The notes below the pieces were generated by a model. That model was not told where the DNA came from. It searched no databases and saw nothing but the letters and a program-made list of their open reading frames with translations. Below are positions 58,206-63,262 of a DNA stretch of 64,000 bases, in pieces; position 1 is the stretch's first letter, and each line of letters opens with the position of its first letter. Position numbers and translations under genes: made by a program. The stretch comes from a bacterium. GTDB taxonomy: Bacteria; UBA8248. The stretch covers positions 2,464,001-2,528,000 of the forward strand of contig CBDBEV010000001.1 in NCBI GenBank assembly GCA_965204535.1. The letters are read 5' to 3'.

Positions 58206-59225
58206 ATGCGATTAACTGCAGGTTGCTTATTCAGCGGCATGGGGGGGTTTGCATCCGGGCTGGTTGAAGCTGGTTTTGCGATTCGATGGGCCAGTGACAA
58301 TGACGAATTTGCCTGCTCGGCTTTCCAACACCGATTTCCCGATGTTCCCGTGATCAAAAAAGATGTGTGCGAACTGTCTGTCCAGGCGGACGGCTTAACC
58401 GAAGTTGATGTGTTGGCGGGGGGATTTCCTTGCCAGAGTTTTTCTCAGGCGGGAAGCCGCCTGGGATTCGAAGACCCGAGAGGGGCGCTATTTTTCGAGA
58501 TTCCACGCCTGATCGAGGAGTATCAACCGGAGAAGCGGCCTTCGCTGATACTTTTGGAGAATGTGCCGCACATCCTGCACGGAGAAAAGGGAATATGGTT
58601 TGATCAGATTCGTCGCGCATTGCGCCGGGCAGGGTACTGGTTTAGAGAAGAATCGTGTTGGACCGTAAATGTTAAAGAAGCGACTAAGTTGCCTCAGGAT
58701 CGCGAACGATTATTTATGGTCGCAGCATCAAAAAGGCGATTTCCCTACAACCCTTTCTCGCCTCCTCAAACCTCAAACGGATTTGGGGCTACGCAACGTC
58801 GTCTCGAAGATTTTGTCAACCGCACGAAGCCTGGGGTGGATGGAGCATACTTACCTCCTGACAACCGCTATTACAAGATGATTGCCAAAGCGATGGATGA
58901 AGGTGAGTCGGATGCGAACATCTACCAATTGAGGCGTTCATACGTTCGAGAAAAAAAGCAGGGCCTGTGCCCGACGCTGACCGCAAATATGGGCATAGGG
59001 GGGCACAATGTTCCGTTTGTTCGCGACCGCTGGGGCATCCGGCGCTTAAGTGTCAATGAGGCCGCGCGGTTTCAGGGTTTTGACGGTACAGACGAACTTT
59101 TTCCAGATATTCCTCCAAGCGAGCAGTATAGATTACTGGGAAACGCTGTTTGCGTCGGCCTTGCACGTTTGGTGGGAAATATGTGCGCGAAGATTTTAAC
59201 CAGTGAGGCGGCTTTAAATGAATGA
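58206..59225 (+). CDS. dcm: DNA (cytosine-5) methyltransferase
   Basis: LFSGMGGF, GGFPCQSFS, LENV, QDRER, RFQGF, LLGNAV. Confidence 0.93.
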   Translation: MRLTAGCLFSGMGGFASGLVEAGFAIRWASDNDEFACSAFQHRFPDVPVIKKDVCELSVQADGLTEVDVLAGGFPCQSFSQAGSRLGFEDPRGALFFEIPRLIEEYQPEKRPSLILLENVPHILHGEKGIWFDQIRRALRRAGYWFREESCWTVNVKEATKLPQDRERLFMVAASKRRFPYNPFSPPQTSNGFGATQRRLEDFVNRTKPGVDGAYLPPDNRYYKMIAKAMDEGESDANIYQLRRSYVREKKQGLCPTLTANMGIGGHNVPFVRDRWGIRRLSVNEAARFQGFDGTDELFPDIPPSEQYRLLGNAVCVGLARLVGNMCAKILTSEAALNE

Positions 59226-61185
59226 AACTATCGGTTGGCATTTTCCACCAACGAACGGCGGTATGGGCGCAGGTTTTAATGACCCAGGAATAGCTCATTT
59301 CACAGGAGCCCCCTTAGCAAGTCTCGCACGAGAAACAATTCAGAATTCTCTCGATGCACGTCTTGCATCAGGTAACCCGGTGCGCGTGGACTTTGAACTG
59401 ATCAGCCTCAATCCCGAAATCGTTGGCCGGGACGAATTAGCAAATGCGATTACCGCATGCTTGCAAATAGCGAAAGAAAGCAATGATACAATAGCAATAG
59501 CACCTCTGGAAGAAGCGTCGCGTACCATAAACTCAAAAGCAATCCATTGTTTACGAGTGTCTGATCGTAATACGACAGGGCTACTTGGTGACCACTGGCG
59601 CAATCTCGTCAAGATGCAGGGAGTCAGCTACAAACCAGAGTTAGAAGGACAAGGCGCCGGTGGCTCTCATGGCATTGGTAAATACGCGCCATTTGCTGTC
59701 TCGGCGCTGAGGTCCGTGTTTTATTGGACCTATTTTTCTGAGGACGGTAAGAATCAAGAAAGATTCCAAGGAAAATCTGTTCTCATGTCACACTGTGGCG
59801 CGGATGGAGAAGAGACGCAAGGCACGGGCTTCTATGGATTCAAGAAAGATTGTCGAGAGTTAACTGGTCAAGAGTTAACAGAACAAGTCCCAGCCCAATT
59901 TCGCGTTTTTAATCTTGCTCGACTTCCACAACAAGGCACTAGCCTGACAATTTTGGGTTTTCGAGAGACAGACAACTGGAGGAAACGCATAGCGACGAGT
60001 GTGATTGAAAATTTTTTCTTTGCGATTGGAACCGGGAGTTTGACTGTAATTGTGGAACCAGATGATTCGAGTGATCTAATGGAGCTAGAGCGTGACACCA
60101 TTGACAAATGGTTCCAACACTTGATGGATGAAGATCCAGGAGATTCAGAGGCCGCAGCTGACGATCCACTAAGGGATGCCCAAATCTTTTGGGAATTATC
60201 CAAGGGCGAACCTATAGCGGAGAAACAAGATGGCGATCTTGGACATTGCAAGCTTTGGCTCCGCACTGATGTAGGTTTGCCCGGGAAAGTTGCGTTCGTA
60301 CGCGGGACAGGAATGCTGGTGACTACCCGACAAAAGGGCTTGATACACTTTTCTGGGTTTCGGGATTTTGCGGCACTTTGTGTGTTTGAAGACCCGGAAG
60401 GAAATGAACTGTTGCGTCGGATGGAGAATCCGCAACATGATCAGTTTGAGCCTGATCGGCTGCCCAAAGAAAAGCGAGAGCGTGGCCGTAAGGCGCTCAA
60501 ACGTGTAACCGACTGGGTAAGGAGCGAGATAAAGAAACACGCGGGACCGCCAGAGGGTGGAAAAAGGACGGTAATTTCGGAACTCTCACAGTACCTGCCA
60601 GATTACCAACCAGAAGAATCTTTCGATGATTCCAACTCAGACAAGGACGAAGGTAATAGCGAACCAGGATTTGGAGATAAGGTAGCTGTTTCACTCAAAC
60701 CGGTCCGCAGACCCGTGCCGCCTAGATTACCAGAAAATGACGGCTCAAACTCAGAGGGCGACGGCGAAGACCTTGGCAACGAGGGAGGTGCGGGAACTGG
60801 CAATAACGGCGGTGGCGAAGGTGACGGAGGGCAAGGTGAAGGAGGAGGCCAAGGCGGAACAGGAACACGCGGAGGGAGCAGCAATAAGCAAAGTGTTCCT
60901 GTCTCAGCAGTTCGGATACTTCCGATTGCGGAGCGCGAAAATTGTTGCCGTCTTAGTTTCTTGGCTGAAGCTGACGGAATTGTCCGTTTGAATCTCGCCG
61001 AGGCCGGCGATTCATCTTCCATACCACGGAATGACGTTCGCGCTATCAGCAGCAAAATCTCGCTTGATCGGATGCGCGTAAAAAACGGCCAGCGAATCGA
61101 AGTTGAAATCACTGCTGACGAACCGATTGACGGCAGAGCTTGGCGCTTATCTGCTACTCCAGTGCAGGAGAGGAATGAATCATGA
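59218..61185 (+). CDS. GHKL (HATPase/MORC-like) ATPase-domain protein
   Basis: LARETIQNSLDA, VSDRNTTGL, GGSHGIGK, GTSLTI; Gly/acidic linker near the C-terminus. Confidence 0.7.
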   Translation: MNETIGWHFPPTNGGMGAGFNDPGIAHFTGAPLASLARETIQNSLDARLASGNPVRVDFELISLNPEIVGRDELANAITACLQIAKESNDTIAIAPLEEASRTINSKAIHCLRVSDRNTTGLLGDHWRNLVKMQGVSYKPELEGQGAGGSHGIGKYAPFAVSALRSVFYWTYFSEDGKNQERFQGKSVLMSHCGADGEETQGTGFYGFKKDCRELTGQELTEQVPAQFRVFNLARLPQQGTSLTILGFRETDNWRKRIATSVIENFFFAIGTGSLTVIVEPDDSSDLMELERDTIDKWFQHLMDEDPGDSEAAADDPLRDAQIFWELSKGEPIAEKQDGDLGHCKLWLRTDVGLPGKVAFVRGTGMLVTTRQKGLIHFSGFRDFAALCVFEDPEGNELLRRMENPQHDQFEPDRLPKEKRERGRKALKRVTDWVRSEIKKHAGPPEGGKRTVISELSQYLPDYQPEESFDDSNSDKDEGNSEPGFGDKVAVSLKPVRRPVPPRLPENDGSNSEGDGEDLGNEGGAGTGNNGGGEGDGGQGEGGGQGGTGTRGGSSNKQSVPVSAVRILPIAERENCCRLSFLAEADGIVRLNLAEAGDSSSIPRNDVRAISSKISLDRMRVKNGQRIEVEITADEPIDGRAWRLSATPVQERNES

Positions 61186-62048
61186 AGTTCGACCCCGGCA
61201 AAGCTTGGCCGCATCCAGTATTGCGGCCTCCCAGCTACGGCGACGACTACCCGCGCGCGGAGTTTGAAGTCGAAATTGAAGTTAAGCGCACCATTCAGAG
61301 TACAGCTATAGAAGTAGATGCTTACTTCGAACTCAGCGAACCGAGCCTCCTTGAACTCTTGAAGCAGAACAAGGCGCAGTTTGCGTTATTGATTTGTTCT
61401 TCGCAGACGCGCTGTAGGGAGTTGCTTAAGTCTAGTCGACCTAACATCAAACATTCGTTCCCTGCCGGCTCCCTATCCGGCAGGGTGGAATTCGCTCCAT
61501 TCTTGGTTTGTATCGAAGCTCTGACAGATTTCCAAGCGGGAGGATGGCATTCTGATTTTGCTGGACGAAAATTTGATATTGAGCCAGGTGCTGTGCTTGC
61601 TGAAGACGTTCCTAAAGACTACTGGATCGATACAGCGGATGAAGCGCCGCTTGGCTCGATTTTTGGACACAGGTCGAACTCCAATATCGCAGACGGTCGT
61701 TGGGAATATCAACTGGCAGAAGATCGTATTTATATTGTGATGTCAGATACAGATTCCCGGCAATATGGAATAGCGCGGGAACAGGTCGGTAATCAACCTG
61801 AAGGGCAATACCTTATGAATGGCCTCTATTTACCCGCATTGATAGCCGTATTAAATGAAGTCGACCAAGACCCCGATGACTACAGAGATTATCGGTGGTT
61901 TGCTTCACTAGATCAGCGCCTTGAAGCTGTGGAATGTCCACCTCTTGGGGAAAATAGCTCAAACCGTTCAATAGACGCCCAAAAGATACTGGATTCGCCC
62001 TTTTTGAGGATGCCGCTGATTGCGCGTGCCGGGATGGACGATTCGTGA
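61182..62048 (+). CDS. Hypothetical protein in the Dcm/Vsr operon
   Basis: 288-aa ORF coupled to both neighbours (ATGA / GTGA overlaps); N-terminal WPHPVL...DDY. Confidence 0.75.
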   Translation: MKFDPGKAWPHPVLRPPSYGDDYPRAEFEVEIEVKRTIQSTAIEVDAYFELSEPSLLELLKQNKAQFALLICSSQTRCRELLKSSRPNIKHSFPAGSLSGRVEFAPFLVCIEALTDFQAGGWHSDFAGRKFDIEPGAVLAEDVPKDYWIDTADEAPLGSIFGHRSNSNIADGRWEYQLAEDRIYIVMSDTDSRQYGIAREQVGNQPEGQYLMNGLYLPALIAVLNEVDQDPDDYRDYRWFASLDQRLEAVECPPLGENSSNRSIDAQKILDSPFLRMPLIARAGMDDS

Positions 62049-62806: not shown

Positions 62807-62812
62807 CTTAAA

Positions 62813-63262
62813 ATGACAGACAATCTAAGTCCGGAAGATCGGTCTTGGTGCATGTCTCAGATTCGTTCACAGGACATGAAACCCGAACGGATAGTCCGTT
62901 CAATGGTTCACCGCCTCGGATACCGTTTTCGGCTTCATCGACGTGGCATGCCCGGCAGACCCGACTTGGTTCTTCCCCGCCACCGTGCGGTGATCTTCGT
63001 CAACGGTTGCTTCTGGCATTGGCACCCGGACCCGAATTGCCCGATTGCGGGGCTGCCTAAGTCTAATCTTGCTTATTGGAAGCCAAAGCTGGAGCGAACC
63101 CGGATTCGAGATCGAGAAAACACTGCTTCTCTGGAAGCCGACGGTTGGAGGGTCTTGACCGTGTGGGAGTGCCATCTACGGCGCCCCGACGATGTTCTGT
63201 CCACGATACGTGAATTTCTCGAAAGCGAAAAGGACAATTTGCCGAACGAGAGAGCCATCTAA
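62813..63262 (+). CDS. vsr: Very short patch repair endonuclease Vsr
   Basis: RSWCMSQIRS, PGRPDLV, FVNGCFWH, VWEC. Confidence 0.95.
   Translation: MTDNLSPEDRSWCMSQIRSQDMKPERIVRSMVHRLGYRFRLHRRGMPGRPDLVLPRHRAVIFVNGCFWHWHPDPNCPIAGLPKSNLAYWKPKLERTRIRDRENTASLEADGWRVLTVWECHLRRPDDVLSTIREFLESEKDNLPNERAI

Follow-up and report, generated by a model that had tools for sequence, protein, structure and literature searches.

For prokaryotic MORC-like ATPases encoded beside DNA methylases, a role was predicted in 2008 and is still a proposal in the accessible part of a 2026 preprint (10.64898/2026.09.30.754977). The paraMORC2 group has as its hallmark, in the sections of Iyer, Abhiman and Aravind (2008, PMC2292703) drawn on here, an ExxxH motif that lies C-terminally within the S5 domain and is strongly conserved. 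In bacteriophage exclusion (BREX), as excerpts of PMC11842806 have it, BrxX serves as the methylase and also as the sensor, it can be deleted without toxicity, and phase variation of pglX is mentioned; BREX methylation requires BrxBCZ, also according to excerpts, and type 4 BREX carries a PAPS-reductase-like gene (PMC12914056, in excerpt). The PDC set, as excerpted, comprises 145 candidates predicted from their embedding in BREX, DISARM (defence island system associated with restriction-modification) and type I restriction-modification (R-M) loci (Payne et al., bioRxiv 10.1101/2024.01.29.577857).

The locus compared with these systems here is a five-gene cassette, methylase-A-B-C-Vsr, at 58206-63262 of the window, by which is meant the whole 64,000-nucleotide stretch analysed (positions 2,464,001 to 2,528,000, forward strand, of contig CBDBEV010000001.1, GenBank assembly GCA_965204535.1, from a bacterium of the GTDB lineage UBA8248 that occurs in sponge metagenomes). 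An initial annotation had proposed it as an uncharacterised defence system. Judged by its protein matches, the cassette belongs to the catalogued candidate PDC-M33, itself a predicted system; A, B and C stand for PDC-M33A, PDC-M33B and PDC-M33C, and G and L numbers for genomes (G000 being the host) and loci. Prior description was among the outcomes that the annotation itself had named as counting against it, and the catalogue entry brings this about in part; on the other side, no published test was found. A full-text search for PDC-M33, DUF6339 and PDC-M together with GHKL returned no paper, while bioRxiv supplements and subscription papers, which lay outside that search, may describe the system; PMC10853773 makes no mention of GHKL or MORC, nor PMC8011034 of paraMORC2. 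The stable methylase-A-B-C-Vsr form, the probable paraMORC2 assignment of A and the candidate phase variation are, as read from sequence, additions that we did not find in print.

The cassette and its conserved core

The open reading frame (ORF) coordinates agree with the initially described layout of five co-oriented genes, four overlapping (by 8, 4 and 4 nt) and the last, Vsr, 6 nt away (Table 1). The C frame has an in-frame ATG downstream of its GTG start. The G+C (GC) content lies below that of the flanks, as had been noted: 0.507 in the cassette against 0.70 in the left gene, 0.67 in the right gene and 0.605 in the genome, 32 of whose 912 five-kilobase segments are this low. All five genes are under purifying selection, the ratio of nonsynonymous to synonymous substitution (dN/dS) relative to L124 being 0.09-0.15, and a contig (X4) from an independent sponge-metagenome run of another study covers 58099-63939 with 57 differences; no RNA run was among those listed as containing it. 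The cassette is real and intact.

Table 1. The cassette genes, the motifs of protein A and the edges of the insert (window positions unless residues are stated).
Feature	Position	Strand	Remarks
C5 cytosine DNA methyltransferase	58206-59225	+	339 aa; Pfam PF00145, E 2e-53; catalytic Cys76
PDC-M33A, probable GHKL ATPase of paraMORC2 type	59218-61185	+	655 aa; PADLOC E 2e-105
Motifs of A	residues 38-47, 114-122, 148-155, 239-241		basis: conservation in 84 homologues
PDC-M33B	61182-62048	+	288 aa; PADLOC E 9e-42; predicted Ig/FN3-like beta-sandwich and beta/helical C-terminal part
PDC-M33C / DUF6339	62045-62806	+	253 aa from GTG; PADLOC E 3e-46; Pfam DUF6339, E 1e-45
Vsr T:G mismatch endonuclease, intact	62813-63262	+	149 aa; Pfam E 8e-26; TIGR00632 above cut-off
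Leader of about 240 bp, left edge of insert	57940-58178	+	common to every filled allele, missing from empty alleles
Right edge of insert	63263-63297	.	similarity to empty alleles picks up again at about 63297, upstream of the xanthine-dehydrogenase-family gene

Running PADLOC, as had been suggested, matched the middle three proteins to PDC-M33A, B and C along almost their whole length and in the catalogued order (models PDLC04582-04587); they are adjacent and co-oriented, as the candidate demands. What differs from the catalogue entry is that a Bsp6I-type C5 methylase and Vsr here flank the core and form a stable unit with it. Relatives were compared in 167 loci (the best 80 of 507 genome-contig matches, the best 80 of 267 metagenome matches and 7 viral loci), which are related by descent and are not independent samples. 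Among the matches listed, 135 of the 142 loci with room have A followed by B and C, and the neighbourhood check thus bears out co-conservation of the three middle genes. A close clade comprises the 53 genome loci whose A is at least 36% identical; here the methylase abuts A wherever there is room (51 of 51 loci), and Vsr comes after C in 33 of 48. The corresponding counts in the other 114 loci are 4 of 79 and 2 of 84. A gene of about 78 codons, absent from this cassette and from every close locus, precedes A in 40 of 79 others. In 38 of the 53 the methylase stop and the nearest ATG of A overlap, by 1-13 nt; the record titles of the close set span about 11 phyla. Methylase-abutting A proteins, drawn from many phyla, fall on one side of a starred branch, with two more such rows outside it; a quick tree built from 72 sequences of A needs two changes to account for this form, compared with a mean of 14 after shuffling. 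Pairwise distances of the methylase, A, B and C correlate at 0.87-0.92, the pairs not being independent.

More distant A-B-C cores keep varied company. Four genomes of the same genus (L031:6353-11469, L032, L033 and L034) have a PAPS-reductase-like gene of about 450 codons upstream (Pfam match weak, E 0.024) that takes the slot of the methylase, a parallel to type 4 BREX as excerpted in PMC12914056. Two of these four have an intervening gene, GmrSD_N in L033; L186 encodes C as a fusion with a PAPS reductase domain, and L193 has an extra DndB-like gene. In G018 (L033:12926-15709) a set resembling the cyclic-oligonucleotide-based antiphage signalling system (AAA ATPase, bacterial HORMA, SMODS nucleotidyltransferase) adjoins the PAPS-type cassette. 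A protein of 850-1200 aa with matches to the RNA polymerase alpha-CTD and sigma70 region 4 adjoins A-B-C in 14 distant loci (examples: L060:6208-9111, L080, L086, L103, L110 and L198).

The GHKL boxes initially seen in the 655-aa protein are conserved at 0.99-1.00 in 84 homologues thinned to below 60% identity: E39/N43/D46, D116/T119/G121, G149/G152/G154 and G240, by motif definitions that we take to be the usual ones. Profile support for the assignment is weak, with one of 12 and one of 66 members matching HATPase_c or HATPase_c_3 (E 0.006-0.009); the N-terminal profile of A, run against 7310 host frames, had an HATPase_c_3 protein as its top non-self match (E 0.036). R362 is conserved at 0.98, and E403 and H407, which form an ExxxH after the GHKL domain, at 1.00. 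Neither A nor B matched a Pfam family. Comparing the three core proteins by sequence with solved structures was unproductive, the matches of A being to its Gly-rich linker only. This linker, of 113 Gly-rich and acidic residues (about 446-558), leads into a short C-terminal domain, presumably a MutL-like layout; in the P0490 record the ATPase part is fused straight to B, without linker and C-terminal domain. Because the ExxxH fits the definition in PMC2292703, A is likely a paraMORC2 GHKL ATPase, with the invariant E403/H407 pair as the best candidate for a catalytic or metal site. The sections of that paper drawn on here share with this locus the GHKL motifs, the downstream ExxxH, cytosine methylase and Vsr neighbours and insertion at a hotspot; the paraMORC2 operons they describe differ in that the cassette has no SFII helicase and no restriction-fold nuclease, and B and DUF6339 are absent from the description in those sections. 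The host genome has two further, adjacent HATPase_c_3 genes (L215:208-1710, plus strand, and 2114-3697, minus strand). A Z1 helicase and a DUF4420 nuclease, which we take to be the content of MORC/paraMORC-Z1 (Mza-like) operons, are not among the five genes of the cassette in Pfam and PADLOC searches. A separate locus in G016 (L035:1022-9844) holds dcm, vsr, a Z1 helicase, a DUF4420 nuclease, a distant GHKL gene and two genes that are like B and C in size.

B was modelled with AlphaFold2 (AF2) at a predicted local distance difference test (pLDDT) score of 84, as an Ig-like sandwich (residues 10-153) and a C-terminal part. The fold search, which barely probed the C-terminal half, returned only tied Ig-like matches (best Z 8.2, root-mean-square deviation (rmsd) 2.8, 79 residues aligned). 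Its conserved residues are mainly structural. B is likely an adaptor. The AF2 model of C (pLDDT 93) is mostly helical; its conserved residues are Arg and Trp (W91, R106, R142, W144, W145), and C is likely a DNA-contacting subunit. Foldseek found no match for C at E 0.001 in PDB or BFVD, and the best VIA structural match (Z 6.5, rmsd 2.9, 85 aligned) is a generic helical bundle. A possible resemblance of C to BrxA/SspB was a lead that fold searches did not bear out. Comparison by hhalign gave no relationship between B and C (probability 0.8%), and the ESM Atlas returned unnamed or own-family clusters only. The initial annotation had offered the DUF6339-like or the 288-aa protein as reader or nuclease; neither of them conserves the residues of a PD-(D/E)xK or HNH set, and the one seemingly conserved Asp of C, at position 87, is replaced by Ile in the window's copy and in 10 of 28 members of the clade. 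Neither protein has a clear match to a known nuclease fold, though absence from these lists leaves a family possible, and a new nuclease fold is possible in C, which has no clear structural match.

The methylase has intact motifs and a target-recognition region of the Bsp6I-partner type, almost unchanged across the close clade: residues 240-270 match methylases adjoining "Bsp6I family" endonucleases on three plasmids, taken from the best 25 listed. Its site is presumably GCNGC. The likeness to Bsp6I-family type II R-M lies in this region; the difference is that no cognate endonuclease was found in the 167 loci or the host genome (profile and tblastn searches with three plasmid queries; genome 95.7% complete; one blank search had no positive control), which extends the initial remark that no recognisable type II endonuclease lies between methylase and Vsr. 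Residues D51, H69, H71 and D100 of Vsr, which we take to be catalytic, are invariant in the clade. A second, unrelated C5 methylase is encoded elsewhere in the host genome (L216:3223-4368, minus strand).

What the methylase may do for the core

We propose, tentatively and with less than even confidence, that the cassette is a nuclease-free ATP clamp that needs its methylase for site recognition, in a BREX-like manner, and that its role is defence. The methylase would mark GCNGC-type sites of the host and would also recognise unmarked sites on incoming DNA. A, by analogy with MutL and MORC biology, may be an ATP-gated dimer clamp that, with B as adaptor and C as DNA contact, would close on unmarked DNA and stop it with no classical restriction nuclease involved. 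The activity of A-B-C would depend on the methylase protein or on methylase translation, a slip in a run within the methylase gene would switch the system off safely, and Vsr would only repair deamination of 5-methylcytosine (5mC). Two arrangements fit best: the methylase joins the sensing step, or it gates expression of A-B-C by translational coupling; in either role its loss would therefore disarm the cell's defence rather than kill the cell. Points in favour include the invariant abutment of methylase and A in the close clade, their stop/start overlap, the grouping of these A proteins on the tree, the correlated distances of the four proteins, the missing cognate endonuclease, the lack of a conserved nuclease residue set in B and C, the excess of G/C runs in the cassettes, and genomes in which the methylase is off and A-B-C is intact. 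The comparison with type I BREX, as excerpted in PMC11842806, is one of analogy: a methylase and an ATPase complex without a classical endonuclease, tolerated loss of the methylase, phase variation, and a PAPS-reductase-like swap in relatives. The parts differ, the methylase being C5 instead of N6 and the ATPase GHKL instead of BrxC, with no PglZ or BrxL; searches of the five proteins with Pfam and PADLOC detected no BrxC ATPase, PglZ or homologous BREX subunit.

The broken genes come from the close clade, in which G or C runs of 10-19 nt lie within the coding sequence of the methylase or A in 7 of the 53 cassettes. Those in the methylase share one position, at residue ~185 (L137, L159, L164); those in L132, L136, L140 and L145 are in the linker of A and have differing flanking bases. 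In L156 a C23 run stands right after the apparent methylase start, out of frame. There are 7 runs of at least 10 nt in 266 kb of cassette, compared with 3 in the 628 kb of flanking sequence (p 0.01), where one sits after a methylase start codon; the whole host genome has 6 in 4.56 Mb. A frame break coincides with 6 of the 7 runs. A core gene is broken or missing in 24 of the 53 loci, by a rule of 85% coverage corrected by hand (A of L164 intact, methylase of L156 broken, L152 a contig end). The methylase is broken and A-B-C intact in L137, L156, L159 and L164, none of whose four genomes has a second cognate methylase; in L137 both methylase breaks are away from the run. Losses of the methylase and of A-B-C show no significant ordering. 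Long-read consensus errors could account for the off states, not for the existence of the runs, which in these relatives are likely a candidate phase-variation switch.

These genomes bear directly on the model first proposed for the locus, a classical R-M system in which A-B-C is an independent ATP-dependent nuclease acting on unmethylated sites, the nuclease or reader is B or C, and protection is the sole task of the methylase. The sections of PMC2292703 drawn on here do predict that paraMORCs belong to R-M systems, with DNA looping between the recognition site and the cleavage site as their task; the clade comes with no other endonuclease, and C leaves room for a new fold. The model is clearly unlikely nonetheless: B and C conserve no catalytic set, methylase-only breaks do not fall below the number expected from gene length (3 of 19, p 0.78, with L156 a fourth), and a phase-variable methylase would be lethal unless polarity silenced A-B-C. 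Of the annotation's methylase-coupled, three-component module, the tight linkage stands in this clade; the independent restriction logic is weakened by the four methylase-off genomes and by distant loci without a C5 methylase nearby.

Several facts weigh against the methylase-dependent clamp as well. Outside the close clade a C5 methylase lies within 3 kb of the core in 26 of 44 loci and is missing from 18, about half of which showed no modification enzyme in a PADLOC scan (E 1e-12, 57 of 81 listed neighbours); in many gut loci the methylase is on the opposite strand. On plasmids, Bsp6I-type methylases work independently, next to an endonuclease that is a protein of its own. Cassettes show no specific depletion of GCNGC, with an observed/expected ratio of 1.03 against 1.10 in flanks. 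The copy in the window has no run longer than 7 nt, and the states with the methylase off could stem from errors of the consensus in long homopolymers, or be harmless only through polarity. The off states and the absent site depletion fit equally a self-standing, methylation-independent module, for example a sensor of a phage product or DNA structure that aborts infection, with methylase and Vsr hitchhiking in this clade as an orphan protective pair. The PADLOC model covers three genes only, and distant A-B-C cores are found beside type I, MmeI, Sau3AI, AlwI/Dam, Z1, BREX or no evident modification genes. Such a module is harder to reconcile with unbroken adjacency, stop/start overlap and one nearly fixed target-recognition region over ~11 phyla, or with the presence of a C5 methylase no more than 3 kb away in 71 of the 89 loci taken together; we rate it somewhat unlikely.

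It is also conceivable, and in our estimate very unlikely, that A-B-C is not the effector and instead helps to write or maintain the mark, as a MutL-like helper of methylase and Vsr (or of the PAPS-reductase-like enzyme in relatives). The pairing of GHKL and Vsr mirrors MutL-assisted very-short-patch repair (PMC2292703, same sections), the requirement of BREX methylation for BrxBCZ offers a precedent, and varied modification enzymes fill the upstream slot. Against this, 15 of the 48 close loci lack Vsr, which rarely follows C elsewhere, A-B-C occurs without evident modification genes, and the insertion site otherwise holds defence-type genes.

The clamp proposal can be carried further: a type II-style C5 methylase would have been recruited to recognise sites for a paraMORC2 clamp that has no nuclease, yielding a 5mC version of the BREX logic with nearly fixed specificity over ~11 phyla of marine host-associated bacteria, phase-varied by G/C runs that arose repeatedly in methylase and ATPase linker. 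In this full form it is unlikely.

The insertion site

Empty, differently filled and leader-sharing alleles in relatives identify a variable slot, of which the cassette is, on this comparative evidence, a horizontally acquired occupant. The flanks are a divergent tauE-family gene on one side and a xanthine-dehydrogenase-family gene on the other; they meet within ~35 nt in G018 and G031, where the site is empty. G014 has the same five genes, G022 has ~2 kb of different DNA, and in G026 (L023:1643-6799) and G015 (L024:1808-6967) the site is filled by a 1718-aa DEAD and UvrD helicase fusion with partial PADLOC matches to DpdF, PsyrT and GajB. The other occupants are defence-type genes; a defence-island setting is supported, and the cassette is likely a mobile defence system. 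PDC-M33A is matched in 7 of 51 genomes of the phylum, closely only in G014. No close viral copy was found, the seven viral loci aligned being distant, and the edges of the insert have no terminal repeats, integrase or tRNA. Promoter-like matches are at chance level only.

The leader is 88-92% identical at this site in G014, G015, G020, G022 and G026, with further copies elsewhere in G026 and G020, and its frames have no Pfam match. It may be a shared homology arm for cassette swapping, or a gene remnant. Copies of the leader (among them L029:2940-3118 and L036:1218-1406) stand ahead of varied cargo at this site and, elsewhere in G026, ahead of a gene for a 1096-aa AAA_11/12-DUF559 helicase-nuclease. 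An intergenic repeat of ~165 bp at 56738-56906 of the window has many copies across genomes of the genus. A second low-GC stretch of the window (~48-53 kb) encodes an IS1595-family transposase (51534-52490, minus strand) and an unclassified 525-aa protein with an HExxH-like motif (49287-50864, minus strand). At 55410-56021 (minus strand), consecutive ORFs of 93 and 99 aa, parted by TGA and with one weak OsmC match, are possibly one read-through or split gene.

Bearing on MORC-like ATPases

Compact, intact and encoding neither a helicase nor a known nuclease, the operon offers a clean construct for the question of what a MORC-like ATPase does beside a methylase. If the core were to work without the methylase, the locus would be one more member of PDC-M33. 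With the methylase-off relatives, the choice between a methylase that only protects and one that also senses becomes directly testable.

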